A DNA stretch of 64,000 nucleotides from Chitinivibrionales bacterium (GCA_038247415.1 JBBRUX010000013.1:1-64000), one strand, 5' to 3'. Positions 39 through 15,300 are shown, counted from the first letter of the stretch. The notes: generated by a model not told the origin, from the sequence alone. Program-made: numbers and translations.

Positions 39-986
39 TCAGCGTTTACGCAACTTGTTTACTCCAAATGGGTTACTAAGATCTTTTAAACACGATTTTC
101 CCTGAAAAACGTCGTTTGCTTCCATATGTTTGCCTAGAGCATTTAAAGCATCTTGCTTGCTTGTACTCCAGAGGGGGGCAACCAACCCATTGGCAACAGA
201 TGCTGATGCCATAAGTCTATGAATATGTTGATCGGGGCGCATAACTTCGATGCACTTTGAGAGTATTTGTGCATAATCCAAAAGATTGAGTACCTCAAAC
301 GTGCCAGTTCGATACTCTTCACACAAAGGCGTACCTTCTATAACCATAAGCTGGTGAAATTTAACGCCCTGAACGGGCAACTGAGCAAGCTGCTTGGCTG
401 TTGCGAGCATCATTTCCTCGGTTTCCCCGGGAAGCCCTAAAATTATATGCGCTGCTGTTTCGATTCCCCTCGTATGAAGATGTTCTACGGTTTCGCAAAA
501 TTGACTAAACGTATGTCCACGGCGAATGCGTAGCAAGGTACTATCATGTGAAGACTGAAGGCCAAGTTCGACACACAAATAGGTACGAGCATGAACATCT
601 GCACAATAATCATAAATATCTGGGGAAAAGCAATCTGGGCGGGTTCCCACAGAAAGCCCTACAACATCGGGATGATTAATTATTGGTTCGTAGAGATTTT
701 TCAGAACATTGACAGATGCGTAGGTATTTGAATAAGGCTGGAAATAGCCAATAAATTTGCGGAATCGTTTCTTTGATTGCTCAATACCGCTCTCAAGTTG
801 AGCTAGTACCGTGTCGCGAGTAGCGGAAACAGGGCTAAAAGAAGCATTGCTGCAAAAGACGCACCCAAGGGCACCCGAGGTGCCATCACGATTAGGACAC
901 GTAAAACCACCATTGAGGGGAATTGTGCGTATCGGCTCTCCAAACTTTTTTTCGATAAAGGCGCGATACGATGAATAATGCTGCAT
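39..986 (-). CDS. TIGR01212-like (YhcC/YtqA) radical SAM protein
   Basis: GFTCPNRDG...GCVFC motif, YFQPYSNTY, GTRPDC, ELGLQS, HIILGLPGE. Confidence 0.9.
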   Translation of the reverse strand: MQHYSSYRAFIEKKFGEPIRTIPLNGGFTCPNRDGTSGALGCVFCSNASFSPVSATRDTVLAQLESGIEQSKKRFRKFIGYFQPYSNTYASVNVLKNLYEPIINHPDVVGLSVGTRPDCFSPDIYDYCADVHARTYLCVELGLQSSHDSTLLRIRRGHTFSQFCETVEHLHTRGIETAAHIILGLPGETEEMMLATAKQLAQLPVQGVKFHQLMVIEGTPLCEEYRTGTFEVLNLLDYAQILSKCIEVMRPDQHIHRLMASASVANGLVAPLWSTSKQDALNALGKHMEANDVFQGKSCLKDLSNPFGVNKLRKR

Positions 987-1010
987 TCATCCTCAATATC
1001 TTAGTATGTG

Positions 1011-2078
1011 CTACTTTTTTCCTTTTGCACGAAGCTTGGCAGCAGCCTTGAAATCGGGCTCGGTATTATCCGTTGGGGCTAAATCACTCAGGTCGCTAGA
1101 AACGTTCAGGTTGCCGACATCCATATGCCCAACTGTGCCGGTGTCTTCATCCCTTTTCATCTTTTGCATTTCGTCGTGCGGGGACGTTGCGGTTGACGTT
1201 GAAGTTGAAGATGACTTGGTATTTTTATATTTATCGGGATTATCTATTTTATCGATTCTCTTTTGTAAACTTTCCTTTTGCAAAACATCATCGGCATACA
1301 CCAAAGCGCTCTGATAGATTTTCTTTGCGTCGTTTTTGTTGCCCATCTCCTCAAGCATGCTTCCTAAATCATCGTAGCATTCGAGAAGTGCCGGGGTAAT
1401 GGCGATAGCTGCCCTAAAATTCTTTTCTGCAAGATCATACTTTTTTTCCTGTTTCCAATTAATCTTGCCCAATTCATGCAATGCATCGGCATTATTGGCA
1501 TCTGCATCAATTACTGCTTGCAAATACGCTTTTGCTTCTGGGGATCGTTCTTTAGTAACAAGCAAGCGGGCCAGGTTGACAGCAGCAGGCCCATTTTTAC
1601 TATCGATAGATAAAATTTCTTTGTATTGCGAAATAGCTTCGTTGGCTTTATTGACATTGAAATACATTGAGGCTAAATTGAGCCGCGCTGAAATATTTTG
1701 CGGCTCGAGATTTATCGCACGAGTAAACGCCTCAATTGCCCGTCCGTTTTCATTAGTATTTTGATACGCAACTCCCATATTGGCCCATACTGCGCCACTG
1801 CTTGGGTTCATTCCAGAAGCTTTGCGCAATTCTTCTAAAGCATTCTGATTTCGCCCAGAATTAAGATAGGCGAACCCAAGATTAAATTGCGCCTCGAAAT
1901 TGGATGGGTCGCGCATGAGAACTTTTTTAAAAGTTGGGATTGCCTGTGCGTAGGCCCCATTACGAAGAAGATCTTGTCCTGCGCTCATGAGATCTTCTGT
2001 TGATTGTGCGCGAGGCAGGCAGAATAAGCCCGCTACAAGAAGCGACAATACCAAACGATGAGTACACACCTGACGCAT
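1011..2078 (-). CDS. Exported tetratricopeptide-repeat protein
   Basis: Signal-peptide-like N-terminus from MRQV (AAGGAG upstream); multiple TPR units (AQFNLGFAY, VWANMGVAY, ARLNLASMY). Confidence 0.85.
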   Translation of the reverse strand: MRQVCTHRLVLSLLVAGLFCLPRAQSTEDLMSAGQDLLRNGAYAQAIPTFKKVLMRDPSNFEAQFNLGFAYLNSGRNQNALEELRKASGMNPSSGAVWANMGVAYQNTNENGRAIEAFTRAINLEPQNISARLNLASMYFNVNKANEAISQYKEILSIDSKNGPAAVNLARLLVTKERSPEAKAYLQAVIDADANNADALHELGKINWKQEKKYDLAEKNFRAAIAITPALLECYDDLGSMLEEMGNKNDAKKIYQSALVYADDVLQKESLQKRIDKIDNPDKYKNTKSSSTSTSTATSPHDEMQKMKRDEDTGTVGHMDVGNLNVSSDLSDLAPTDNTEPDFKAAAKLRAKGKK

Positions 2079-2251
2079 ACAATCTCCTTTGCCTGACACC
2101 TTCAGGGCTTGGAATTCGATTGGGGCATTGTGGCAATTTACTATTACTATATATATAAATTATATCAGGACGCAAAATCTGCAACAAAACCCTGTAATTC
2201 ATGGTATTGATCTTTTTCTTACGATTTTTTTGTAAAATATTGTTTTTTTTC

Positions 2252-2279
2252 TAAAGCACATACCGATTCGTGCCGATAG
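2252..2279 (+). promoter_or_regulatory. Sigma28 (FliA/SigD)-type promoter of flagellin, distal
   Basis: TAAA-N16-GCCGATAG upstream of flagellin; matches the sigma28 consensus. Confidence 0.8.
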
Positions 2280-2366
2280 ATAAGATAGGAGATACTTTGA
2301 TGTTGCTATAAAGACAGTTTCATTATGTCTTTTTAGAGAAAAGTACTTAAATATTCTAGTAAAAAT

Positions 2367-2393
2367 TCAAGTGACTCTTTGTTTTGTCGATGA
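2367..2393 (+). promoter_or_regulatory. Second, proximal sigma28-like promoter
   Basis: TCAA-N15-GTCGATGA, a degenerate match. Confidence 0.5.
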
Positions 2394-2427
2394 TTTAAAG
2401 AGGGGGATCTCTAAAAAAGTATCCCTT

Positions 2428-2550
2428 TAGCCACAAGGACGCTTGGCTAGCGTAGAGGAACCATACTACTACTAATAATAGTATGTGTTTCAATACATTT
2501 TTCGCCCTTTTTAAACGAAGGGCACACTCAAACCCCAACAAGGACGTTGG
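2428..2550 (+). promoter_or_regulatory. Two CsrA-type GGA-loop hairpins in the flagellin leader
   Basis: TAGCCA-CAAGGACGCT-TGGCTA (2428-2449) and CCAAC-AAGGAC-GTTGG (2535-2550); the second covers the SD, 3 nt before the ATG. Confidence 0.7.
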
Positions 2551-2553
2551 CTT

Positions 2554-3720
2554 ATGAGAATCAATCATAATATTGCGGCCATGGTCACCCAGGGTTCACT
2601 CTTTACCGTGAATCGTGACCTTGGAAAGTCTATCCAGAAATTATCTACAGGATTGCGCATCAATGCCGCTGGAGATGACGCTGCTGGATTGGGCGTATCT
2701 GAAAACCTTCGCAAACAAGTTCGTGGTATGGGCCAAGCATCTAAGAATGCGCAAGATGCCATTTCGCTGCTCAATGTTGCTGATGGAGCTCTTGGTGAAC
2801 AATCGACAATACTGCAACGTATGCGTGAACTTGTCATCCAAGCCAAAAACGATACCTATACCTCTACTGAACGTGGGTATATGGGGCGAGAGTTCTCTGC
2901 CCTTAAAGATGAATTAGATCGAATAGCTGCGGTAACCAATTTTAATGGTATGCGCATTTTTGCCAATCCCGACGCCGATGGGGAGGTTGGAATATACTCG
3001 TCTACATTTAGAGGTGGTCCTCCGCATAGAACCCAATTTTCCAATGATGTTTTTACAAACGCTAACGACTCTGTTTTTGGGGCAGCGGATACATCCTCAT
3101 CTACCCATTTCAACATGATGATTGGCGCGAACTATACAGCAACAGATGCTGCAGCCACTATCAGTAACCGTGAAGCCTGGAACCCCAATGCAGAAAATAT
3201 GATCACCATTCAGTTTGGTCAAATGAATGCACGTGGTATTTTAAGCAAAAACCCAGGGGCTATAGAAACTATCGATCCTGATCATATCGTAGATGATTTT
3301 AGTTGGGATCCCACCAATGATATTGGCGACATGGTAATAGATGTTATGACTGGTGTGGGCACTGCAACAGCTAAAAACAAACTTGACCTCTACCTCGACC
3401 TTATTGACGGGGGAGAAAATGTTGACCCGCTTCTGAACACAGCGCTTTACAATGGTGATCAAAACATCACTGGCCTAGAACGCATCAGTACCATGCGCGC
3501 TAAGATTGGTGCTATGGTAAATCGTTTGGAACATACGGTAACAAACCTCCAGAACTCAATAAATAACACACAAGCGGCCGAATCGGTTATTCGGGATGCA
3601 GATTTTGCTCAAGAATCTGCAACTTTTACTCGGAATCAAATTCTAACTCAATCGGCAACTTCAATGCTTTCACAAGCAAACATGGTATCCCAGGGAGTTC
3701 TCTCGCTCTTACAGCGATAA
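2554..3720 (+). CDS. fliC: Flagellin
   Basis: MRINHNI..., KLSTGLRINAAGDDAAGL, LQRMRELVIQA; C-terminal RAKIGAMVNRLEH...IRDADFAQE...QANMVSQGVLSLL. Confidence 0.97.
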   Translation: MRINHNIAAMVTQGSLFTVNRDLGKSIQKLSTGLRINAAGDDAAGLGVSENLRKQVRGMGQASKNAQDAISLLNVADGALGEQSTILQRMRELVIQAKNDTYTSTERGYMGREFSALKDELDRIAAVTNFNGMRIFANPDADGEVGIYSSTFRGGPPHRTQFSNDVFTNANDSVFGAADTSSSTHFNMMIGANYTATDAAATISNREAWNPNAENMITIQFGQMNARGILSKNPGAIETIDPDHIVDDFSWDPTNDIGDMVIDVMTGVGTATAKNKLDLYLDLIDGGENVDPLLNTALYNGDQNITGLERISTMRAKIGAMVNRLEHTVTNLQNSINNTQAAESVIRDADFAQESATFTRNQILTQSATSMLSQANMVSQGVLSLLQR

Positions 3721-3742
3721 GCGCAGGTATACTTAATTTTTT

Positions 3743-3783
3743 AGAGCTGTACCCCTCGTGGGTATGGCTCTTTTGTATTTTTT
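3743..3783 (+). terminator. Intrinsic terminator after flagellin
   Basis: AGAGCTGTACCC-ctcgt-GGGTATGGCTCT stem (two G-U pairs) followed by TTTGTATTTTTT. Confidence 0.7.
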
Positions 3784-3787
3784 ATAT

Positions 3788-4624
3788 ATGCTAACATTTT
3801 CAATTGGATCGCTCAATTTTCTGATCGAAGGAAATATTCCCAACGAAGCGTATTTGGCGCTTGATCCTTGGGTAAATACTATACCCAGCGCACATTGGAC
3901 AATTTCTGTTAAAACCGGGGATATCCCCTTAATACCCCCAGAATCTCTTTCTCAACGGGGCGATTTCTGGTATTTTGAAAATGATTATGCCCATGGATTT
4001 TTATGCCAATTGCTATTCTGTTCGATTTCAATACCCGATAAAACCATTAGCATGTGGCCACTTCAAAACGAATCCCCCCTCTTAGCTCTTTCTGAAATTA
4101 TTAAGCATGCCGTTTCTATTGCAGCCCTTGAAGCTGGCGGATTTCTTTTTCATAGTTCTGCCTTATACCGACCTGGGTATGGTGCGTGCGGTTTTTTTGG
4201 TGGATCTGGTGTGGGCAAATCTACCATTCACAAACTTTTACAGCCCTCATGGTTGCCGCTTCATGACGAATTCAATGTAATTTTAAGAAATAGCACTACG
4301 TACTCTATCTATTCGACGCCTTTATCGGGAAGAGGTGTTTTTTCGGATTGCAAACCGTATGATGCTCCACTTAGACGCTGTTTTAGACTTAAAAAAGGTG
4401 TTGCAAACAATCTCGATTCGTTACATAAAAGTGAATATACCCTCGTGCTGGCCAAAGAAGTTGTACTATTGCCCTCAGATAATAACCAAGGAGCACTGTT
4501 TTTAGATACTATCGCATCATTTACATTAGCCATTCCAGCAGATGACCTTACTGTTGCAAAAAACGATCGTTTTGAACCGTGGTTTTCATCTTTGATTTTA
4601 GGAGAAGCCCAGCCATGTATATAA
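3788..4624 (+). CDS. HprK-related P-loop kinase (RiPP-cassette type)
   Basis: GGFLFHSSAL...GGSGVGKST...LHDEFNVI...YSTPLSG: the H-x-S, Walker A and DD/DE layout of HprK-like kinases; start placed at ATG 3788, after the terminator. Confidence 0.7.
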   Translation: MLTFSIGSLNFLIEGNIPNEAYLALDPWVNTIPSAHWTISVKTGDIPLIPPESLSQRGDFWYFENDYAHGFLCQLLFCSISIPDKTISMWPLQNESPLLALSEIIKHAVSIAALEAGGFLFHSSALYRPGYGACGFFGGSGVGKSTIHKLLQPSWLPLHDEFNVILRNSTTYSIYSTPLSGRGVFSDCKPYDAPLRRCFRLKKGVANNLDSLHKSEYTLVLAKEVVLLPSDNNQGALFLDTIASFTLAIPADDLTVAKNDRFEPWFSSLILGEAQPCI

Positions 4625-4884
4625 CAACTGCAAACCTTTCAATGAGAACCATTGAAGATGAAAACTTTATTCTTAATCGTGCAGATTCGGTATTACATGC
4701 TCTTAACCCAACCGCAGCACTCATGTGGGATGCTATTCAAAACCAAAACACCCCACATGAAATTGCTCAAAAAATTGTGGACACCTTTGAAGTATCTTTT
4801 GAAGAAGCACTGAGTGACACCCGAACATTTTTATCTGAGTGCGAAAAAAAAGGTCTGATCTCATTTACAGAAACACCCTTATGA
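4615..4884 (+). CDS. PqqD-family RiPP recognition element (RRE)
   Basis: About 89 aa; LNPTAALMWDAI...EIAQKIVDTFEVSFEEALSDTRTFLSECEKKGLI; AGGAG before ATG 4615. Confidence 0.9.
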   Translation: MYITTANLSMRTIEDENFILNRADSVLHALNPTAALMWDAIQNQNTPHEIAQKIVDTFEVSFEEALSDTRTFLSECEKKGLISFTETPL

Positions 4885-6032
4885 ATTCAAGCTCTTTACG
4901 GGAAAGATTTGAAAATCTTGGAGCACAAAGCCGCCCCGTATATGGCTCTATCGAAATTACCAACACCTGCAATGCGCACTGTCGATACTGCTATATCGAT
5001 TCGGAATCGGCCCAACCCGAACTTTCAGGCGCCACGTGGATACAAATTATTGACAAACTCTACGATAGCGGCGTTATGTTTTTGCATATTACAGGTGGGG
5101 AGGTTTTTTTACACCCCGAAGTTTTAAAAATCCTTGACTATGCTTGTAGCAAGGACTTTTTTCATATTAAAATTTTTACAAATGGCACATGCCTGCAACC
5201 GGAACATTTCGATTTTCTCGGTGCTCATGCAAAATTCATTACCTATATTCAAGTATCCATTTTCTCCCACCACGCAAAAATTCATGACGAGTATACCGGA
5301 GTGCCAGGGGGCCTGGATTCAATCATCAAAACTGCAGCACGATTGCAAAGTTTTGGCATTAGAACCATTGCTATGTACAACCTCCTCCCATCCAATATTG
5401 ACGAAATGAACCAAGCAAAATCATGGTTACAATCCAACGGATTAGAAGTGTACTTTGGCCTGCTCAAAATCAAGCCATTTAAAGAGCGCTACTCCCCAGA
5501 AAACCAGGTAGCGCAGACGCCCGAATTCTTGAAAACATTTTTTTCCCACTCTGGACCGCAATTCAGGGATGACCATAGAAATCTTTATAATAATCGAAAT
5601 GCCAATGGCAATAAGGCGGCTCTTCTTTGCAAAGAAATGGCACTTTCCATAACTGTCGATGCGCACGGGGACCTCTACCCCTGCAATACATTTAGGAAAA
5701 AATCATTTGGATCGATTTTTGACAAACGTCCATTGCAAACAATCCTTGCTGAAAGCACCCCTCGCGCCCATTTAGTAGCAATGACTCATGGCTCTATTGC
5801 CAAATGCGCCCAGTGCGAGCATTTTGGATTTTGTGCAATTTGCCCAGCTCTCATGAATGATGAGGACGAAGCCATGGTTAACCCACCAACACTAGCCTGC
5901 GCCATTGCAGAAACTGTCAAAGAAATTGCCACAACACCTTACGAACGAACACCCCTCGCCAGTCAAAACACATCTCTGCCAGATGCACAAGCAATCTGTA
6001 AAGGAGCATCTCATGACATTGGCTCGAACTAA
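4881..6032 (+). CDS. Radical SAM/SPASM domain peptide maturase
   Basis: CNAHCRYC, TGGE, FTNG; SPASM C...ITVDAHGDLYPC...CAQCEHFGFCAICP...C; ATGA overlap with the RRE stop. Confidence 0.9.
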   Translation: MNSSSLRERFENLGAQSRPVYGSIEITNTCNAHCRYCYIDSESAQPELSGATWIQIIDKLYDSGVMFLHITGGEVFLHPEVLKILDYACSKDFFHIKIFTNGTCLQPEHFDFLGAHAKFITYIQVSIFSHHAKIHDEYTGVPGGLDSIIKTAARLQSFGIRTIAMYNLLPSNIDEMNQAKSWLQSNGLEVYFGLLKIKPFKERYSPENQVAQTPEFLKTFFSHSGPQFRDDHRNLYNNRNANGNKAALLCKEMALSITVDAHGDLYPCNTFRKKSFGSIFDKRPLQTILAESTPRAHLVAMTHGSIAKCAQCEHFGFCAICPALMNDEDEAMVNPPTLACAIAETVKEIATTPYERTPLASQNTSLPDAQAICKGASHDIGSN

Positions 6033-6396
6033 TGCTCTTTCAGATTTTTTATTTGATACACCATCATGCCATGTGGTTTTAGGCACATCGATGCTGCCTG
6101 CATTATGTCATAGGGAAAAGGTACCCCTCATACGCCATACGAATCTCTTTCCTGGCAAATGTTATGCGTTTGTTTTAAATGGCACGGTCATTGTACATCG
6201 ATTAATTGCGCTCAGCAAAAACCAATGCCTATTTTCTGGAGATAACACACGACGTTTTGAGAATGTGCCACGCACAGATATAGTTGCTCAAGTAGATATG
6301 CGGGAATCCTTCATATATATTTGGATACTTGTTCATTTAAAGTACCTTCATGCATTATTTTTAACATTTGTTAAAAATAAAAACCCTCTCTTCTAA
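6013..6396 (+). CDS. S24/S26-family peptidase
   Basis: GTSMLPAL (catalytic Ser), VIVHRLI, FSGDN; AAGGAG before ATG 6013. Confidence 0.7.
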   Translation: MTLARTNALSDFLFDTPSCHVVLGTSMLPALCHREKVPLIRHTNLFPGKCYAFVLNGTVIVHRLIALSKNQCLFSGDNTRRFENVPRTDIVAQVDMRESFIYIWILVHLKYLHALFLTFVKNKNPLF

Positions 6397-6424
6397 AAAC
6401 TGATTGCCAACAGGAGTGATACCT

Positions 6425-6586
6425 TTGAAAAGAATCTATGAAAAACCTCTTATTATATCCGAATCCATTTCGCTTCATTCACTTCGTGCTGCCCAATGCT
6501 GCATCAAAGTTAACCTGACAGCTGTCCTTGGTCCCGCCAATGGCGTTTGCCACTGCGCTTGTCCGACCTTGCTACCGTCACAATAA
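6425..6586 (+). CDS. Putative RiPP precursor peptide, 53 aa, 5 Cys
   Basis: AGGAG (6412-6416) then TTG 6425; MKRIYEKPLIISESISLHSLRAAQCCIKVNLTAVLGPANGVCHCACPTLLPSQ; YxxP leader motif; last gene of the RRE/rSAM operon. Confidence 0.7.
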   Translation: MKRIYEKPLIISESISLHSLRAAQCCIKVNLTAVLGPANGVCHCACPTLLPSQ

Positions 6587-7399
6587 TAAAAGCTCTATCA
6601 ACCGCTTGATTCTTTGCCTTATAAGTGCAATCGGCTGTCGAACACAAGGGGCTTCGTATGCTAATCTTCGCAGCACATACGGCATTTCCTGATACCATCC
6701 GCGCTGATACATCCATGCAAGAAAAATGCTGTGCCGAGCTTTGGAAGGAATACATGCATCTGCATTTTTTATTTTTTCGTAAAGTAGTACTACAAAACAC
6801 GCAAACTTATAGATGCCGGCTTTCCTAATACGATTCCAGAATTCCTGCCACGAAAATCCAGACAGAGTAGAAATCAATGCTATTTCATCGGCGAGTGTTT
6901 CAGAAATTTCAAAAGGTACATGAACGAGCGCATGACAGACAAGAATACAGAGAGCATCTACTGGATCTAATGCATACTCAGAACCATTCTGATGTTTCGC
7001 TCTTTCAAAAAGATTCTGCGTTTTAATGAGAAATCTTTCCGGATAATTAAGTTGTGTATGAAGCTCTACACAAACCCACCCTTCTGCAACAGGAATAAAA
7101 AAACTCCGCTCAAAAGACCAGATATTTGGTTTTTCAATAGTTTCTGGAATATTCAGTAATGCGTTGGAGGCCCGATGAAAATCTTCAGGATTAACAAGAA
7201 TATCGATGTCAACCATTTTTCTATTTTTCAATCGACCTGCTAATTTACATTGTATAAGGAAAGCACCCTTGATTGGCAAATATTTTATTCTGTTTTTAAA
7301 AAACGAAGTATGCAAAATATCAAGAACATCGGCATAAATGATCTGCCGTGCCACCCACGAAGAATTTTTGGATACTATTGATTGTTCGAACTGTTTCAT
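6578..7399 (-). CDS. Nucleotidyltransferase family protein (NTP_transf_5-like)
   Basis: LPIKGAFL...RKMVDIDILV...VELHTQL...LVCHALVH. Confidence 0.8.
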   Translation of the reverse strand: MKQFEQSIVSKNSSWVARQIIYADVLDILHTSFFKNRIKYLPIKGAFLIQCKLAGRLKNRKMVDIDILVNPEDFHRASNALLNIPETIEKPNIWSFERSFFIPVAEGWVCVELHTQLNYPERFLIKTQNLFERAKHQNGSEYALDPVDALCILVCHALVHVPFEISETLADEIALISTLSGFSWQEFWNRIRKAGIYKFACFVVLLYEKIKNADACIPSKARHSIFLAWMYQRGWYQEMPYVLRRLAYEAPCVRQPIALIRQRIKRLIELLLL

Positions 7400-8583
7400 A
7401 TAAAAGCCTTAGTGCGCTCTGCAAGCTTATCGCACAGCGGAATTATCAACACACAGAAAAAGAGCATGCAATATTGTGAATACCAAACAATACCGTACCC
7501 TCCGCTTGCTTGCGAGAGCACGGCAAGAATTATCCACGGTATTCCCTGTATGAGCGTGCATGAAATTAACAAAGACGACAGGGATTCCTTGAGATTTACA
7601 ATTTGCCATATCATAACAATAAGTCCTGCTACGCACGCGATAGCCGCAGCATGTAAAGATCCATCCATGGAAGAATTCAGTTTAGAGAATATATGAAATG
7701 GGGAAACAGAAAAATCTTGACCCATAAATGCAGGCGCTATGAAAAATATTATAGAAAAAACTAAAATCCCTCCGTAGATGATGAGCCATCTCCGAGGCAA
7801 AAAAAAGCGCGAATATGCTAGTATGAGCGGGACCAATACTATAAAATTTATTCGTGATGAACAGGCGATTCCGCACATCAGGAAGGAAACGATTACCAAA
7901 ATTCTATTAGATTGTGCATGCTTAAGAACTGCGCTCAAAATTATAAGGGCACAGAAAACATAAAGACCATTTGCCAACAAATCGTCTCCAGTACAAAGCG
8001 CGCGTAAAATAGGAACAGCCGCTAATGCACTACCGATTGCTAGAATAATTCTGCTATCCGCTTTTCCTTTGCGTAACAATAATAGCACTATCGTGACAAA
8101 AATCCAGAAACTATTCTGCAGTTCAATATGATTGCTCAGAACAAAGGGGGCTGCAATAAGAAGTGCCCCAGGAAGTGGGGAAAGAGCATTTCCCAGATAC
8201 GTTTTTTGATTATACGGATTCTCTCCACGCAATAAAGAGTGACCCCCAGCTACAAGCGCATCATCACGATCACATCCGCCATGAATTCCAATTTGTCCAG
8301 AAGGATAAAAAACAAGGGGAACAATAACGAGAGCACTACCCAGCAAAACCCAGAGCGTACTAGCTACTGCCCGATGTCTGATAATTGTTTGGATCACTTT
8401 TACATGGACGCACGTGATTGCAAGAGCCAAACTTGTTCCCACCGCAAAGCATACTAATCCTGGCAGCTGGAAATACTTTACAATTTGTTGTGCAGAAACC
8501 AGAACAATGCCAGAAACAAGAAGCCACAATTCCCCCATACCCGCTCTGCGAAAATAAGAAAGAAAAAAACGTGGCATGTTCAC
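7396..8583 (-). CDS. Polytopic membrane protein, possibly a GT-C glycosyltransferase
   Basis: About 10 hydrophobic segments; DRDDAL...LLRGENPY...PLPGALL loop resembles GT-C enzymes. Confidence 0.5.
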   Translation of the reverse strand: MNMPRFFLSYFRRAGMGELWLLVSGIVLVSAQQIVKYFQLPGLVCFAVGTSLALAITCVHVKVIQTIIRHRAVASTLWVLLGSALVIVPLVFYPSGQIGIHGGCDRDDALVAGGHSLLRGENPYNQKTYLGNALSPLPGALLIAAPFVLSNHIELQNSFWIFVTIVLLLLRKGKADSRIILAIGSALAAVPILRALCTGDDLLANGLYVFCALIILSAVLKHAQSNRILVIVSFLMCGIACSSRINFIVLVPLILAYSRFFLPRRWLIIYGGILVFSIIFFIAPAFMGQDFSVSPFHIFSKLNSSMDGSLHAAAIACVAGLIVMIWQIVNLKESLSSLLISCTLIQGIPWIILAVLSQASGGYGIVWYSQYCMLFFCVLIIPLCDKLAERTKAFI

Positions 8584-8885
8584 GTGGAATAATCCGTTGA
8601 TACTTCTGGAAAGTTTTCTTTTTGCACTTGTTTAATAATGCGATAAATATGCACTGTTGAAATACGATACTGTTTGGAAATTTGCGCAATAGCCAAACCG
8701 GATTTTGAAAGCCTGGCAATCTCCTGATTGCGCTTTTCGTTCCTCTTAGAAACTGGCGCTATGCCATATTTAATGCGCAATCGGTGTATCTGCTGTCGTG
8801 GAATACCAAACAGCGCTCCTACCGAAGCATCGGTAGGATATCGCTTTTGCAGCTTGAGTAGTTGATCTTTAGAAATGCGGGGCAT
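8580..8885 (-). CDS. Small basic helix-turn-helix DNA-binding protein
   Basis: Two HTH-like segments (VGALFGIPRQQIHRLR; IAQISKQYRISTVHIYRII). Confidence 0.6.
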   Translation of the reverse strand: MPRISKDQLLKLQKRYPTDASVGALFGIPRQQIHRLRIKYGIAPVSKRNEKRNQEIARLSKSGLAIAQISKQYRISTVHIYRIIKQVQKENFPEVSTDYST

Positions 8886-8922
8886 AGACGCCTATCTTTA
8901 GTCAACACAATCTGATTAATCA

Positions 8923-9915
8923 TTATTTTTTAGACAAAAGCTTTTCCCACCAAGCCCGATTATTACAATACCACTCAACCGTTGATGCAATCCCTTTCTC
9001 AAATGTCATGGCAGGCTCCCATCCAAGATCTTGTTTGATCTTAGAAGCATCGATAGCATAGCGTCTGTCGTGCCCTGCGCGATCTGCAACATAGTTAATA
9101 AGCGATTCTGGTTTGCCAAGTAATGATAGAATCTTTTTAACTATGGTAATATTGGGCATTTCGTTATTGCCGCCTATATTATAAACATCTCCAACCGTTC
9201 CTTTTTGCAGCACGGTATGGATTGCGTTACAATGATCTGTTACATATAGCCAATCACGAACGTACATTCCATCGCCGTATAGAGGAAGATCTTTATTCGA
9301 TAGAGCATTAAAAATGATTACAGGAATTAACTTTTCGGGAAACTGGTAAGGGCCATAATTATTTGAGCAGCGAGTTATCATTGCCGGAAAACCAAATGTA
9401 TGCACATATGCTCGCACAATAAGATCGGACCCTGCTTTAGAAGATGAATAGGGACTATTAGGAGCAAGCGGGGTAGTTTCACGAAAAAAATCGGTTGGGC
9501 CCAAAGATCCGTAGACCTCATCGGTTGACACATGAACAAACCGCTTGCCGTCAAATGATCCTTGCCATGCTTTTTTTGCTACATCAAGCAAAATCTGAGT
9601 ACCCAGCACATTTGTTGTTATAAAAATTTCCGGCCCAGTTATAGACCGATCTACGTGCGATTCGGCAGCAAAATGAACAACGCCATCAATCGCATATTCT
9701 GAAAAAATCTTTTCAACAAGAGGCCGGTCGATTATGGAACCCTTTACAAACACATATCTTGGATCATTATCAATTGCTGCTAAGTTTTCTATATTTCCTG
9801 CATAGGTTAATGCATCAAGATTTATAATCCGGGTTGTGTCGGCGCTTGCCAAACGGGTTAAAATATAATTTGATCCTATAAAACCAGCTCCCCCAGTGAC
9901 CAATAGATTCTTCAT
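8923..9915 (-). CDS. rfbB: dTDP-glucose 4,6-dehydratase
   Basis: LVTGGAGFIGSN, DALTYAGN, HFAAESHVDRSI, STDEVYG, YSSSKA, HDRRYAID. Confidence 0.97.
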   Translation of the reverse strand: MKNLLVTGGAGFIGSNYILTRLASADTTRIINLDALTYAGNIENLAAIDNDPRYVFVKGSIIDRPLVEKIFSEYAIDGVVHFAAESHVDRSITGPEIFITTNVLGTQILLDVAKKAWQGSFDGKRFVHVSTDEVYGSLGPTDFFRETTPLAPNSPYSSSKAGSDLIVRAYVHTFGFPAMITRCSNNYGPYQFPEKLIPVIIFNALSNKDLPLYGDGMYVRDWLYVTDHCNAIHTVLQKGTVGDVYNIGGNNEMPNITIVKKILSLLGKPESLINYVADRAGHDRRYAIDASKIKQDLGWEPAMTFEKGIASTVEWYCNNRAWWEKLLSKK

Positions 9916-10793
9916 TACTGTATCCTTTCAGCTTTTAAAAGTGTTTCTGCAACGTAGTCAGCAAATGCTGATTCCCATGGTCGCATAGTATTATGACCTA
10001 ATTTCTTGAGTTCTTGATTTTCGAGCACGCTATTCGCTGGGCGCGGTGCAGGTCTGATAAATTCCTGCGTAGTGCAGGGGCTCACGACTACCGGTATGTT
10101 ATACGCTTTTACAATAGCCTTTGCAAAATCATACCACGTACAGGCACCTTCGTTCGTGCAATGAAATAATCCTGAATCATTTTTATCGAGACACATAATA
10201 ATTTGTTTGCACACGTCAACAGTATAGGTTGGTGTACCATGCTGATCGTTTACAACCCGAAGCTCTGTCCGGTCTTGGGCCTTTTGGAGTGCAATGGTAC
10301 GGATGGTTTTTGCGAAATTATTTCCACGACTTCCGTAGAGCCACGCGATCCGGAAAATACTGTAGCTACAGCCCGATTGGATGAGCTCTTTTTCGCCAGC
10401 ATACTTAGATTCGCCATACACCGATTGTGGATTGGGTTGATCAATCTCAATGTAGGGTTCTTTTTTATTTCCATCAAAAATATAATCGGTACTAATATGC
10501 ACGATATGCACCGCTCGTGCTTGTGCTACTTTTCCTAAAACGCCTACACCTTGCGCATTAACTGCAAACGCTGCATCGCGTTCTGTTTCGCATTTATCAA
10601 CAGCTGTATATGCCGCGCAATTAATTACAATTTGGGGGGAATAGCGATCAAAAGCATCAACGACACTTTGCATAGAGACAATGTCTATGTCTGGAAAATC
10701 CATTCCCGATACTGTATATCGATCGGTGGGAAAATGGTGCATCATATCTGCACCAAGCTGGCCATTACAGCCAATAATCAAAACATCTCTCAT
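9915..10793 (-). CDS. rfbD: dTDP-4-dehydrorhamnose reductase
   Basis: GCNGQLG, NCAAYTAVDKCE, HISTDYIFDG, YGESK, DQHGTPT, PAPRPANSVL. Confidence 0.95.
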   Translation of the reverse strand: MRDVLIIGCNGQLGADMMHHFPTDRYTVSGMDFPDIDIVSMQSVVDAFDRYSPQIVINCAAYTAVDKCETERDAAFAVNAQGVGVLGKVAQARAVHIVHISTDYIFDGNKKEPYIEIDQPNPQSVYGESKYAGEKELIQSGCSYSIFRIAWLYGSRGNNFAKTIRTIALQKAQDRTELRVVNDQHGTPTYTVDVCKQIIMCLDKNDSGLFHCTNEGACTWYDFAKAIVKAYNIPVVVSPCTTQEFIRPAPRPANSVLENQELKKLGHNTMRPWESAFADYVAETLLKAERIQ

Positions 10794-12364
10794 GGTGTCT
10801 CCTCGGCTACCAGAAGGTTTTTGCATTGCTCCAGGTCTGCCTCAAATAATGAAAATCCATGCACAGTCACCTCAGTGCCCGGAAGTCGGACACTTTTAAG
10901 CGCCCAACTTTTACGACTATTAAATCGAGAAAAATTTGAAACGATATCGGGAACGGTCATATTAGTTTCTACTCCTGTTACCAGTTGTTTAGCAAACATT
11001 GTAGTAACTACAAGCCCTCCTGTTCGAACGCGATCAAAGAGAGCTTTCAGCAGAAGGACTTGACGATCTTCACAGTCTTTCCAACCGGAAATTAGTGGCC
11101 GTATAAAAATAGCTGCTTGTTCGCCATTAATTTTTTGTGGTCCCCGCTTTAATTTAAGATATGCTGCGGCTTTATCATCGACGTCAACAGTAACTCCCCC
11201 AATTGCGGTAATAATCCGAATCATCTGATTTTTTGTCAGTATAGAATAGCGCGGGACACGGGCATTCATGATACGCTCAACCATGGTGGACGCAAAAACT
11301 GGTCCGCCAGAGAGCAATGCCCCATCAAGTGTTTCGACGCCCTGCACAAAGCGATCGACCGTTGTTGCATGGGGAACATTGACAATATACGTTTTTCCTT
11401 GCTCAAATTGAACACTCACAAAATAAAACGTCATGGGTATGCCCACAAAAAGCATATTAAACGGCATGGTTCTTACCATGTAAGCAGTTTTTTCTTTGGT
11501 AAGTTGCGAAAACTTTTCGTTTGGGTTGACATCACGCGTTAAAGATCGAACCTGAATCGGTCGGCCGTCAGCAAAAACAATAGCACTTTGTCCCGCTATA
11601 ATATTGAGGGCATCTCCATTGGGTCTTTCGATAAGCAGCAAACCCTCTATATTATGAATCGTGACATCGGAATATCGAACGTCAACAAGAAAATCGCCGC
11701 CTCCACCGCCCACAGTAATGTTACCCTGCGGTGTAGCAATTTTGTACACTTCCCCTTTAGATGCATACGACAACTTATACCAGCAAATCCCCGATTTTTG
11801 ACTCAGCCTTCTCGCAATTTTATTTCCAAGAGGAGTTCCAAGATTATTTATTGTCAACTCAGATACTTCATCGATGTCGATCCGCGAAAAGGTATTAAGC
11901 GTAATTTCTGCTTGACCTTTAACTTCGGTTATTATTCGATCTCCATCAGATAATGCCATTCCCTCGGAAGCACTTTTTGTTCTGCCATCCGATGCAATAA
12001 CCGATAGATCTCCATAGTAAAACTCCAATCTCCCACTACCCGCATCTGGTTTAAGCGCAACTGGCTTTGCAAGCGTTCCAACATTAATTGATTGATCGGG
12101 TGTAATGGCAGATGCTAAAAAATAGCGCGTTAAATCGGAGGTCGAGCGCACGCCAGCCTTTCGTAGCACTTCAAAATTTGTTGATTCTTCTGGAACCCGA
12201 TACACCCCGGGATGTTCTACATTGCCCTCTACCGTAACCAGGCACGTATTCTTTTGCGAATTCTCGAAATGATCGGACAGATTGCGCACGATTCCATAGC
12301 CGATAGTACCGACCATAAGAGCATACACACAGTATCGGCCTATTGTATAAGGTGAACGAGCCAT
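10790..12364 (-). CDS. Membrane-anchored SLBB + FecR-like + LCP (LytR-CpsA-Psr)-like fusion
   Basis: N-terminal TM; VEGNVEHPGVY (SLBB); GDRIIT...QAEITL (FecR-like); AIGGVTVDV...NGEQAAIFIR...DRQ...VETNMT (LCP-like). Confidence 0.65.
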   Translation of the reverse strand: MARSPYTIGRYCVYALMVGTIGYGIVRNLSDHFENSQKNTCLVTVEGNVEHPGVYRVPEESTNFEVLRKAGVRSTSDLTRYFLASAITPDQSINVGTLAKPVALKPDAGSGRLEFYYGDLSVIASDGRTKSASEGMALSDGDRIITEVKGQAEITLNTFSRIDIDEVSELTINNLGTPLGNKIARRLSQKSGICWYKLSYASKGEVYKIATPQGNITVGGGGGDFLVDVRYSDVTIHNIEGLLLIERPNGDALNIIAGQSAIVFADGRPIQVRSLTRDVNPNEKFSQLTKEKTAYMVRTMPFNMLFVGIPMTFYFVSVQFEQGKTYIVNVPHATTVDRFVQGVETLDGALLSGGPVFASTMVERIMNARVPRYSILTKNQMIRIITAIGGVTVDVDDKAAAYLKLKRGPQKINGEQAAIFIRPLISGWKDCEDRQVLLLKALFDRVRTGGLVVTTMFAKQLVTGVETNMTVPDIVSNFSRFNSRKSWALKSVRLPGTEVTVHGFSLFEADLEQCKNLLVAEETP

Positions 12365-12368
12365 AGCG

Positions 12369-15300
12369 CTATTCTCCGTTTGCCAATGCATGTTTTTCGG
12401 CAACGATACGCCACATTGCATTGGTATACTTCCATAATTGCGTATACACAAGGCGAACCGTATCCGACGATGAAGGAAAAGATATATACACTTGACAGTT
12501 TACAACTGAATCATTTCGCTGCGCTGGTTGTACCGAATCGACCACGACGTTTGCTGATTTTTGCGACGAAAAAAGAATGCTATCCCGCATTTCGTAGGAC
12601 CATGCAGCGTAATCTCCTCGCGGATACGAAAAATCCGCGGTATCATACATCTGTAAAAATGAAGCTACATCTTGTGCTGCCCATGCTTGTTGCCACAGAT
12701 CGATACTATCTTTAATGCCCTGGGATATCTCCTCGTGTGCTGTTGGTTGGACTGTTGAATCGGGGGAAGCATACGTACCCAATGCTTGATTATTAGAGCT
12801 TACCGCTGGACCAACATACGCAATTTCAGCAGGGATCGTAACGGCATGCTTGGGAAGTACTGTTGGAATCACCACAAACACACCTGTCAATAATAACCCT
12901 AAAATCCAAAACATTGGCCTTCGCAAAAGCCCCTTGACAAACAAAGACACCACCCCTACATAGCGGGGCACCGCAAGCCGAAAATCGGAAAGATGCGTTC
13001 TAATCTGAGATTCAACAGCAAGCCCCCACTCACGCATTGTCGAACGCGAAGATGGGTCTTCTTCGTAATCGTAGGTATATTTATACGCATAATAGCGATA
13101 ATAACCATAATAATAAGGATAGTACCCACGGGAATGAGATATCCCATTAAGGATAGTACCAATAACATTAGAATTCAATTGCTTCAATTGTGCTTTCGCC
13201 TGTTGTGCTGCACGAATGGGAGTCCAGAGCGTTCGTGACACCATAAGAACAGCATCCATACGGGGAGCCATAGCTAGGGCGTCGGATACAGGGAGCAGCG
13301 CAGGTGAATCGAATATGACTAAATCAGCACGCTTTTTAAATTCTTCTATCAACTCATCAAAGCGTGGCGTTCCAAGGAGTTCGGTAGGATTTATCGGACG
13401 ATCCCCTGCTGTAACAACTTTTAAATTTTCTTGACGCGCTGGTTTTAATGCCGATGCGACATCGATTGTACCAAGCAGCAATTCGGCAAGTCCCCCTTCT
13501 TTGGGAATAGACAAAACAGAATGAAGCTGTGGCCTTCGTAAATCGCCATCTATGAGGATCACTTTTTTGCCATCTGCTGCAAAACTAATAGCTAGGTTAA
13601 TAGCAATAGTAGTTTTCCCTTCACCTTTAACGGGACTGCAAAAAATAAGCGTCTTGATTTTATGGATAACAAGTAGATGCTTAATTGACGCTCGCAAAGC
13701 TCTAAATGGTTCTAGTCGGGTTTTGCCTACCTCCGATTCAAAGTCGAGGACAACATTTTCCCCCTCAATCTGTGGAATCATTCCTAACAAGGGAACTTCT
13801 AGCAGCCGCTCCACATCCTTGGGATCTTTAATTGTTTGATCGAGGTACTCTAAGAGGAACGCTAAAGCAACGCCTAAAATAAGGCCCACAATAAAGCCAA
13901 CAAAGAGCTGAGTTGATTTTGCCGTCGTGATGGCACCTGTGGGTGTTGGTGCCAGTTCAAGAATTTTAAGATCACTTTCTTGCGAATCTCGCTTTATTTT
14001 TGCTTTTTCATATTGTGTTTGCAAGAGAGAGAGAGCTGCAATAAGTGATTCTGTTTCTCTTTGTAACGTGATATACTGTTGCTCGGTAGCGGGAAGTTTT
14101 ACTTTCTGATCATCGAGACCGATTTTGAGTTTTTCCTGTGCCGCAAGCTTCGCATCGAGTGTTGCTTTTTCTATGGTTAGGCTCACGATACTCTGAATGA
14201 GATTTTCCCGAATTGGATTTTTGGTAAGCGTTTTAGACCGGATGGTTTTAGAAACCTCAGAACTAAGAATCTCTCGCATTTTCTCGATTTGCTTTTTGAC
14301 CATTTGTACTTTAAAATGATCGGGGCCGTATTCTGCTAATAATGTATTAAGCTGAAATTCAAGATCGGCGAGCTGATTCTGATAGGGATTACTATAGGTA
14401 ACCGATTGGACAACACTGATATCCTGTTCGTTAATTTCTCGTTTGATAGAGACAAATCGCTGTTTATTATCGATCAGCGCAAGCTGAGATGATTGCACAG
14501 CCTGGTCTATCTCGTTATACCTGCCTTCAACTGCCGAAGCTCCTCTGGATAATTCAACAATATGATTATCTTCTTTAAAACGTCTAAAGGTATCTTCTCG
14601 ATCTTTAAGATCGGCCTTAACTTTTGCGATTTGGTCTTCGAATTTAACAATCATACGCGTAATATCTTGAGCATTCACTTCTTGAATATGAGCAAGATAC
14701 GATTGACACAAGGTATTTACAACATCGCGCGCAATCTCAGGACTGCCATGTTTATAATACACTTCTATAATGTTGTTGGTCTCGGTCCCGGTCGTCCCCC
14801 GCTCTATGGTAAGACCACCAGGAATTGCCTCAGGTGCAATTTTATTATCCAAACTTTCTGAAACGCGTCGTAGAACTTCATGGTTTGTTGCAAGCAAATC
14901 CAGATGCGTGCTTATTTTTTTCTCGGTTGAACCCCATATATCCCAAGGAATAGAGTTTTCGCCCATAAGCTCCTGATACCCAGGAGTAAACAGAAGCCTT
15001 GCATGTGCCTTATAATATTTTGCAGCTGTAAAATACCCATGCATCGAGATTGCTCCACCAATAAGCAAAGCAAGGATAATAAGAACTTTACGTCTTAAGA
15101 GTACACTTAAATAGCGATAGATATCGAATGCATCTTCATCCTGATCGGCTGCTAAAAACGTATCTCCCGATCCCGGCGGCACAGGAGTGCCTGTGCCCCG
15201 TACCATCTGCGCTTGTGCGACTTCAACCGATTCCTTGAGTGGGGGATCTTCAAAGGGCGGAATATCCGCTCTGCTGGATGACTTGGAATCTTGCACATGC

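Follow-up and report, generated by a model that had tools for sequence, protein, structure and literature searches.

What do the six closely packed genes between positions 3788 and 7399 of a 64,000-nucleotide stretch of DNA from a Chitinivibrionales bacterium (GCA_038247415.1 JBBRUX010000013.1:1-64000; this whole stretch is called the window below) make together? An initial annotation, prepared from the sequence alone, had read them as a complete cassette for a peptide that is synthesized ribosomally and modified post-translationally (RiPP), made up of a kinase, a RiPP recognition element (RRE), a radical SAM (rSAM) protein with a SPASM domain, an S26 peptidase, a Cys-rich precursor, and a nucleotidyltransferase (NTase). 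Our analysis supports this RiPP reading of the window at the bioinformatic level. We put at roughly 0.7 the probability that the locus is a RiPP cluster of hybrid type, in which the phosphorylation toolkit of linear polyphosphorylated peptide (LPP) and paeninodin-type clusters is combined with an rSAM enzyme resembling the sactisynthases. Its product is likely a thioether-cross-linked, phosphorylated, and possibly phosphoglycosylated peptide that is released by a Ser/His peptidase.

Gene layout

All coordinates refer to the window, and start codons were adjusted through orthologue alignments. A listing of the open reading frames (ORFs) between positions 1 and 12000 shows a row of overlapping genes on one strand that begins right after a flagellin gene (2554-3720), and all six genes lie where the initial annotation had placed them: five tightly packed, co-oriented genes, presumably co-transcribed, and a convergent NTP_transf_5 gene. 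What its coordinates had missed is the linkage to the flagellin paralogue just upstream.

3788..4624, plus strand: putative peptide kinase (ScmC-like) with a phosphoenolpyruvate carboxykinase (PEPCK)/HprK-type P-loop fold, 278 aa; assigned from motifs, fold, and orthologues
4615..4884, plus strand: stand-alone RRE (PqqD-like, lasso-B1 type), 89 aa; PF05402; 10-nt overlap with the kinase gene
4881..6032, plus strand: putative radical SAM/SPASM maturase; PF04055 and PF13186; ATGA overlap with the RRE stop
6013..6396, plus strand: putative S26-like Ser/His leader peptidase (archaeal/endoplasmic reticulum (ER) type), 127 aa; 20-nt overlap with the rSAM gene
6412..6416, plus strand: AGGAG ribosome-binding site, 8 nt 5' of the precursor TTG; read directly from the sequence
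6425..6586, plus strand: precursor peptide, 53 aa/codons, TTG start; conserved small ORF after the peptidase gene
6578..7399, minus strand: NTP_transf_5 nucleotidyltransferase-fold enzyme, convergent; PF14907; 9-nt overlap with the precursor 3' end

The domain scan that had been proposed along with the initial annotation succeeded in part, with matches to PF05402, PF04055, SPASM, and PF14907; it returned no Pfam HprK domain, and the S24 score stayed below threshold.

Conservation of the cassette

The rSAM protein was searched against 41 related genomes, of which 17, including the window's own, matched at E ≤1e-40, and the 16 foreign loci were taken as a first set. This survey of the surroundings of rSAM homologues, a check that the initial annotation had proposed, recovered the same gene order in relatives: kinase, RRE, and rSAM genes follow one another in all 16 loci, and wherever the sequence continues past the rSAM gene, in 15 loci, the S26-like gene and then the small ORF come next. 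A second set, consisting of eight loci of another family, displays the full gene order in 8/8. A metagenome scan with the rSAM alignment yielded 78 loci, and the best 30 of these (L083-L112) were analysed, the other 48 being weaker and mostly partial rSAM matches; among the best 30 of the 78, the architecture is the same wherever the contig permits. Because the cassette is conserved across more than 50 loci, chance is excluded as its origin. In one locus (L016), kinase and RRE are fused into a single protein of 374 aa. Within the window's genome, kinase and NTase are each present in a single copy. A search of genome contigs with the single rSAM protein returned one distant, truncated relative only.

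On a wider scale, a kinase profile was searched against 296 genomes of the phylum and matched 138 of them at E ≤1e-5. Strong matches (E ≤1e-36) were found in 27 genomes, all belonging to the window's order, of which about 81 genomes were covered. The eight loci of the second set came from this search. Eight kinase loci from outside the order were examined, and in six of them (L075, L078-L082) the kinase is paired with an S24-like gene; PqqD, NTase, or rSAM genes join this pair in some loci, and no flagellin gene stands next to the kinase modules in any of the eight.

The precursor peptide

The small ORF behind the peptidase gene, for which a precursor role had been proposed, is a genuine conserved gene: none of the 23 related genome loci whose sequence continues beyond the rSAM gene lacks it (15/15 in the first set and 8/8 in the second), and it was detected in 20 of the 30 analysed metagenome loci, many of them on short contigs. 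In the window, it encodes a leader (MKRIYEKPLIISES...SLRA) followed by a core with Cys25, 26, 42, 44, and 46 and Ser52; in this numbering, Y5, P8, and C46 are invariant in the orthologue alignment. The counts below are over 38 distinct sequences, with the frameshifted L112 copy left out. Counted from the Tyr, the leader pattern is M-K-K-x-Y1-E2-K3-P4-x-I6...L16-x-A18, with Y1 and P4 in 38/38 sequences, K3 in 33/38, and A18 in 23/38; C20 follows in 26/38. The first Cys lies 19-22 residues past the Tyr in 34/38, the 15-25 residues past this Cys are hypervariable, and a C-x(0-3)-C motif stands near the C-terminus in 35/38. It is this combination of a conserved leader with a variable, Cys-containing core that identifies the small ORF as a RiPP precursor. 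Ser is the terminal residue in 14/38 and lies within the last three residues in 24/38, against a background of 10.7% Ser in the core; the binomial P of 2e-5 for this enrichment is overstated because the precursor sequences are related. Searched against the PDB, the precursor profile gave chance matches only (E above 4).

Two metagenome contigs depart from the simple arrangement of one intact precursor gene. L107 carries two different precursor genes (7385-7666 and 8254-8595), one on either side of the NTase gene, and in L112 both the rSAM and the precursor genes are split across frames, as in a decayed copy or through sequencing error.

Recognition element and kinase

The stand-alone RRE stood up to closer inspection. 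The protein matches PF05402 (PqqD) at 4e-13, and its profile matches TbiB1 (1e-14), LppB (9x8z_B, 2.9e-9), PbaB1 (9x90_B, 3.2e-9), and TfuB1 (7.5e-9), whereas PqqD itself is matched at 2.2e-3 only; the structures 9x8z and 9x90 are identified as LppB and PbaB1 in PMC13381572, of which, as of PMC8498205 and PMC7533575, only parts were consulted for the statements made here. These matches support a discrete RRE of the lasso-B1 type that is predicted to bind the YxxP leader, the motif read by lasso-type RREs (PMC13381572). Complex prediction with the RRE and precursor alignments gave a score of 0.37; the control, which had an unrelated protein as chain 1, gave 0.43.

The kinase had no Pfam HprK match in a single-sequence scan, and its only NCBIfam match was ScmC (3.1e-3; 16.9 bits against a cut-off of 125); the Atlas groups it with PF27840 ScmC clusters at a score of 0.96. 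An alignment of 17 orthologues displays a conserved His122, a GxSGxGKS/T Walker A motif, and an (N/G)D(E/D) motif. Since the kinase profile gave P-loop and PEPCK matches but no HprK among PDB sequences, a fold comparison was needed. The AlphaFold model (pLDDT 90.4) found ATP-dependent PEPCK as its best Foldseek match (4.6e-7), with HprK/P (1knx) at rank 50 (2.8e-4). By its motifs and its fold, the protein is a putative P-loop kinase of the PEPCK/HprK fold, a type named HprK-like in the RiPP literature.

The radical SAM enzyme

The predicted maturase contains an rSAM domain (PF04055, 9e-20) and a SPASM domain (PF13186, 7.9e-6). A CX3CX2C motif and seven SPASM cysteines are invariant in the alignment, ten Fe-S cysteines in all, and thus three Fe-S clusters are implied, one radical-SAM and two auxiliary, as is characteristic of sactipeptide/ranthipeptide-type enzymes. 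The label rSAM/SPASM was therefore well chosen: the SPASM domain has its full set of seven cysteines, and the closest relatives are sactisynthases. SkfB (5.8e-30) comes first among solved structures, followed by PqqE, SuiB, and CteB (8.7e-15), and AlbA (2.2e-25) is the top NCBIfam match, with PapB at 2.3e-14. From these likenesses and the conserved cysteines of the core, we infer that the product would contain Cys-to-carbon thioether bonds.

Peptidase and nucleotidyltransferase

At first glance, the peptidase gene is less easily named, with a Peptidase_S24 score of 17.9 bits under the Pfam cut-off of 23.3. The profile built from 16 orthologues nevertheless matches SEC11C (2.6e-4), SpsB (3.7e-4), and SEC11A (9.2e-4), and the model (pLDDT 90.8) matches the folds of LexA, SpsB, and SEC11, so that the S26-like label of the initial annotation holds. 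Ser26, Met27, Pro29, His62, Arg63, and Asp77 are invariant in the 16 orthologues, and the protein carries HR where Ser/Lys peptidases have KR. Its sequence thus points to a Ser/His enzyme resembling archaeal/ER-type signal peptidases. Leader cleavage is predicted near the conserved L-x-A, which would fit a rule of small residues at positions -3 and -1, the rule being of our own making.

The NTase gene (PF14907, 3.9e-20) is present in 12/16 loci of the first set and 7/8 of the second. Kinase and NTase belong to types known from paeninodin and pseudomycoidin clusters (PMC8498205), as the initial annotation had said for the paeninodin type. There, homologues of HPr kinase place a phosphate on the C-terminal Ser of the lasso precursor (paeninodin), PadeK-type kinases polyphosphorylate the precursor serine, and PsmN, a nucleotidyltransferase, attaches one or two hexoses to the phosphate (pseudomycoidin). 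The nucleotidylation that the initial annotation had envisaged is accordingly not the role on record, which is hexose addition to phosphate (PMC8498205).

A proposed maturation pathway

The following sequence of events would account for the gene set. The 53-aa precursor would be made and held through its leader, with the YEKPxI motif and an alternating hydrophobic stretch, by the lasso-B1-type RRE. The rSAM/SPASM enzyme would then join conserved cysteines to acceptor carbons as thioethers; the cysteines concerned would be the one or two right after the leader and the C-x(0-3)-C pair near the C-terminus. The kinase, likewise recruited by the RRE, would phosphorylate a serine, most likely near the C-terminus (Ser52 in the window), and the NTP_transf_5 enzyme may extend the phosphate with a sugar. 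Finally, the Ser/His(/Asp) peptidase would cut off the leader in an RRE-dependent manner, probably around ...SLRA|AQCC.

Several observations weigh against this pathway or parts of it. The counts over related genomes are not independent of one another. In 14 of the 38 precursors, Ser is missing from the last three residues, and since the phosphosite of LPP is Ser3 of the core and not the C-terminus (PMC13381572), the choice of a Ser52-type phosphosite may be wrong. LppN activity was undetected in the only study of the module (PMC13381572). Neither the window nor most of its relatives encode an exporter, ABC-2-type (not MsbA-type) genes being found in 4/17 loci; an ATP-binding cassette (ABC) transporter is absent among the scanned window genes, from 39 to 12451. 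The idea that the peptide is made together with the flagellin, discussed below, has to reckon with a strong hairpin after the flagellin gene in only 10/30 loci. Lastly, the rSAM protein scores far under the cut-offs of all curated families (bits/cut-off: AlbA 89/850, GeoRSP 72.5/400, ScmE 66.9/400, PapB 53.3/340) and falls outside the curated maturase families AlbA, SkfB, StsB, and PapB.

It is because of these low family scores that a reaction other than thioether formation has to be considered. Within the same RiPP cluster, the rSAM/SPASM enzyme might instead catalyse epimerisation, C-C or C-O cross-linking, or a Cys-independent change, the cysteines serving otherwise, for example in disulfides or metal binding. 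SPASM enzymes are indeed established as catalysts of many reaction types, as review listings attest. Nonetheless, the closest characterised relatives by profile are the sactisynthases SkfB (5.8e-30) and AlbA, the latter as top NCBIfam match, and Cys is the only feature of the core that is conserved in position; we therefore regard such a different chemistry as improbable, and thioether cross-linking as the better account of the rSAM gene.

Relation to known peptide systems

The initial annotation knew of no characterised product of this type from Fibrobacterota. The module of kinase, RRE, signal peptidase I (SpI)-like peptidase, and NTase, however, has since been characterised as the core of the LPP clusters (Popov et al., Nat Commun 2026, PMC13381572); the combination of an rSAM enzyme with an HprK-like kinase, by contrast, was not found in the literature. 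In LPP, the core genes lppA-K-B-S-D-N encode the precursor, the HprK kinase LppK, the RRE LppB, LppS, the MsbA-like pump LppD, and the NTP-transferase LppN (PMC13381572). LppK polyphosphorylates Ser3 of the precursor core, and LppS is a homologue of archaeal-type signal peptidases with essential S29, H68, and D93, whose cleavage is RRE-dependent (PMC13381572). The leader motif is YxxPxVLxHQxIxFETxxS, and the clusters sit in capsule loci and are stated to be restricted to Bacillota (PMC13381572).

According to these parts of the LPP paper, the window and LPP have in common the kinase, the RRE, the SpI-like peptidase, and the NTP-transferase; a leader with YxxP motif and about 12 further leader residues; and an association with glycan genes. 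Ser26/His62/Asp77 of the window peptidase mirror S29/H68/D93 of LppS. An SpI/SipW-like Ser/His/Asp peptidase, a discrete RRE with a YxxP leader, and an HprK-like kinase with a PF14907 protein are thus all in place. The two systems part at the pump and the maturase: LPP has an MsbA-like pump in its core set and no rSAM, and the window shows the reverse, so that in place of a linear product made without a cross-linking enzyme we find an invariant rSAM/SPASM gene. LPP cores are also long (45 aa in LppA) and, in the sections of PMC13381572 consulted, not described as Cys-rich, and the window RRE scores better against TbiB1 (1e-14) than against LppB (2.9e-9). On its gene content, the cassette is best described as an LPP-like module that appears to have acquired an rSAM/SPASM enzyme of sactisynthase-like type along with a Cys-rich core, and that is without the LPP pump.

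Paeninodin- and pseudomycoidin-type lasso clusters share with the window a B1-type RRE, a YxxP leader, an HPr-kinase homologue, and an NTase (PMC8498205, PMC7533575), and, as far as these sources were consulted, the accessory sulfotransferase and glycosyltransferase family 2 (GT2) genes that occur in relatives of the window's cassette. They differ in that the window has an rSAM/SPASM enzyme and an S26-like peptidase in place of the lasso cyclase and the B2 cysteine protease. The initial annotation had noted the absence of a lasso cyclase, and rightly so: no Asn_synthase domain is found on the window's contig, and the four matches in the genome all lie on other contigs. Likewise, no B2-like transglutaminase gene was seen among the window ORFs in a general Pfam scan, which used no B2-specific family model. 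The pair that defines lasso clusters, macrolactam cyclase C and B2 protease, is hence missing from contig and ORF scan, respectively.

With SkfB, AlbA, CteB, and PapB the window shares an rSAM core joined to a complete SPASM domain, as well as a core peptide that contains Cys, and its leader K-x-Y-x-x-P presumably resembles sacti/ranthipeptide leaders. The RRE, in contrast to that of sacti/ranthipeptide synthases, is a separate protein of lasso-B1 type and not an N-terminal domain of the enzyme. To our knowledge, sacti/ranthipeptide systems do not carry a kinase, an NTase, or an S26-like peptidase of this kind, and no such system turned up in the literature. In the SynChlorMet cassettes (TIGR04248-TIGR04251), too, a ScmC-type kinase-like protein is found together with a PqqD homologue and rSAM/SPASM proteins. 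The window differs in having one rSAM gene and not two, a defined precursor, and the flagellin linkage, and its proteins stay far below the family cut-offs (bits/cut-off: ScmC 16.9/125, ScmD 21.7/100, ScmE 66.9/400, ScmF 56.5/400). No paper using the SynChlorMet name was found in the literature.

Taken together, the LPP toolkit, described in 2026 as a linear-peptide route of Bacillota only (PMC13381572, in the parts consulted), is now seen in another phylum, in about 50 relatives, and in company with an rSAM enzyme. The main text of PMC13381572 never mentions radical SAM, rSAM, SPASM, flagella, or Fibrobacter. In the literature, we came upon no report of a RiPP cluster that pairs an rSAM enzyme with an HprK-like kinase, and the supplements of PMC13381572 may list rSAM-associated or non-Bacillota members. 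We also found no description of the predicted class of peptides, thioether-bridged and phosphorylated at once. With short, well-defined precursors and soluble enzymes, the pathway should be easy to reconstitute.

Linkage to a specialised flagellin

The most unusual feature of the cassette is its order-wide attachment to one flagellin paralogue, which gives a testable hint at the biological role of the module. Two features lie between the start of this gene and the cassette.

2554..3720, plus strand: flagellin, 388 aa, long paralogue; Flagellin_N 1e-42, Flagellin_C 4.7e-24
3743..3771, plus strand: terminator-like hairpin, 12 bp stem then T-run, -17.9 kcal/mol; between the flagellin stop and the kinase start

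A flagellin gene stands directly upstream and in the same orientation in 23/25 genome loci, the window included. Two loci deviate: the contig of L008 stops 300 nt past the kinase gene, and L026 has a GT2 gene in the flagellin position. Among the metagenome loci with at least 1.3 kb 5' of the kinase gene, 14/15 have the flagellin gene directly upstream (the exception is L096), some of these 15 contigs duplicating one another. Seven Flagellin_N matches were counted in the genome of the window. A tree was built from 30 flagellins of six genomes and four families, after eight rows (five FlgL-like, three truncated) had been dropped, and in it the six cassette-linked sequences form one group with 100/100 support on a long stem. 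Linked flagellins measure 378-403 aa, against 283-302 aa for the other paralogues, and contain some 100 additional residues in the centre, where they share conserved motifs. Strong hairpins (≤ -13 kcal/mol, T-rich tail) follow the flagellin stop in 10/30 loci, and none was found in 12/30.

Adjacency and orientation are kept across at least seven families of the order, patchy as the cassette is, so that flagellin and cassette are inherited together. From the position of the operon directly behind the long flagellin gene and a terminator that looks leaky, the peptide is probably made together with the flagellin, and co-expression through this terminator is the simplest reading of the link. Alternatively, the adjacency might be a frozen accident of gene order without regulatory or functional meaning. 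No mechanism ties a RiPP to flagellin, L026 among the genome loci and L096 among the metagenome loci carry the cassette without the flagellin gene, and in some loci a hairpin terminator separates the two. However, an accident would hardly be kept in at least seven families when only 27 of about 81 genomes of the order give strong kinase matches, the genes on its other side vary freely, and the linked flagellin is a distinct paralogue. We consider the accident a serious contender, yet one that we would bet against, and continue to favour co-expression.

A direct functional tie of the peptide to the filament, or to the export apparatus of the flagellum, is no more than conceivable. It is tempting to speculate that the peptide, rather than being a free-standing antibiotic or signal, is a functional partner of the long flagellin: as a phospho(glyco)peptide decorating or capping filaments of this paralogue, as a carrier or primer of its glycan, or as cargo of flagellar export. 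The cargo role would account for the lack of a dedicated exporter in most clusters; a partnership of any such kind nonetheless strikes us as rather unlikely. No paper linking RiPPs to flagellin was found in the literature.

Further upstream, a tetratricopeptide repeat (TPR) protein of about 700-925 aa, with no other Pfam domain, is encoded divergently 5' of the linked flagellin gene in 9/16 loci of the first set, and in 8 of those 9 a cytidylyltransferase-like protein of about 160 aa stands beside it (L013:2-2664 and 2875-3405, minus strand; equivalents in L014-L017, L019, L022, L025, and L027). These two genes may be a flagellin-modification pair. The window also has a TPR gene (1011-2099), and it was considered as a homologue of the relatives' TPR gene of about 888 aa; the two did not cluster together, and the candidate was rejected.

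Variable genes around the cassette

On the NTase side, the cassette is followed in the window by two further genes and in relatives by a changing set of accessory genes.

7396..8583, minus strand: polytopic membrane protein, 395 aa, of uncertain cluster membership; 4-nt overlap with the NTase start
8580..8885, minus strand: small helix-turn-helix (HTH) protein (HTH_23/Mor-like), candidate regulator; HTH_23 2.6e-8
Relatives, 4 loci: accessory GT2 glycosyltransferase beyond the NTase
Relatives, 3 loci: accessory sulfotransferase
Relatives, 1 locus (L013): accessory methyltransferase
Relatives, 4 loci: accessory ABC-2 permease and ATPase
Relatives, 3 loci: second NTase
Relatives, 3 loci: NTase fusion of about 600 aa

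The 395-aa membrane protein has no Pfam/NCBIfam match and no homologue in the other loci; in the Atlas it falls into unnamed clusters (0.99), with a weak GT87 (GT-C) lead from 14% of members. Homologues of the HTH protein lie beside the cassette in 7/16 first-set loci, 2/8 second-set loci, and 4 metagenome loci.

With so many glycan-type genes nearby, one may ask whether kinase, NTase, and glycan-type enzymes act on the adjacent flagellin, the locus being mainly a flagellin-modification island. The almost constant association of the cassette with a single flagellin paralogue, which has an additional conserved outer domain, would suit such a role, as would the GT2, sulfotransferase, methyltransferase, and ABC-2 genes of relatives, the TPR and cytidylyltransferase-like genes 5' of the flagellin gene in 8-9/16 first-set loci, and the presence of rmlB and rmlD nearby in the window. 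Yet an RRE and a conserved YxxP leader indicate a small peptide as substrate, as does the kinase-RRE fusion in L016; in LPP and lasso systems, the substrate of the homologous module is a peptide precursor (PMC13381572, PMC8498205, as far as consulted); and outside the order the kinase-peptidase pair occurs without flagellin, sometimes together with PqqD, NTase, or rSAM. We therefore hold a modification island to be very improbable and retain the RiPP cluster as our reading of the locus.

Past the HTH gene, positions 8923-10826 and 10790-12451 of the window (minus strand) hold rmlB-/rmlD-like dTDP-sugar genes and a LytR_cpsA_psr protein gene; the rmlB-/rmlD-like names come from the sequence and one phmmer match. 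With these neighbours, the cassette borders on glycan-synthesis genes, like LPP clusters. Three ScmC-like kinase modules from outside the order are part of polysaccharide loci, which also carry genes for GT1, GT4, Wzy, DegT, PIG-L, or carbamoyltransferase: L074 has the kinase alone, L077 adds PqqD and NTase, and L079 adds NTase and the S24-like peptidase. This context echoes the capsule-locus setting of LPP, as given in the parts of PMC13381572 consulted.

Two further loci outside the order deserve mention. L075 (G244:C12) is SynChlorMet-like, with two rSAM/SPASM genes around a PqqD gene and with divergent kinase-like, S24-like, and methyltransferase genes. In the largest family of the phylum sample (f13), 92/151 genomes have a weak kinase-profile match, and the one locus inspected for such weak matches, L081 (G163:C7), has a trio of kinase-like, S24-like, and PqqD genes beside a type III glutamine synthetase gene, with no rSAM or NTase gene within 5.5 kb. 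That the weak phylum-wide matches are genuine HprK/P was considered and rejected on the strength of this locus, which holds the kinase-like/S24-like/PqqD set instead. At the edge of the window, outside the cassette and 5' of the TPR gene, positions 39-986 (minus strand) encode another radical SAM protein, unrelated, that carries a Radical_SAM_C domain.

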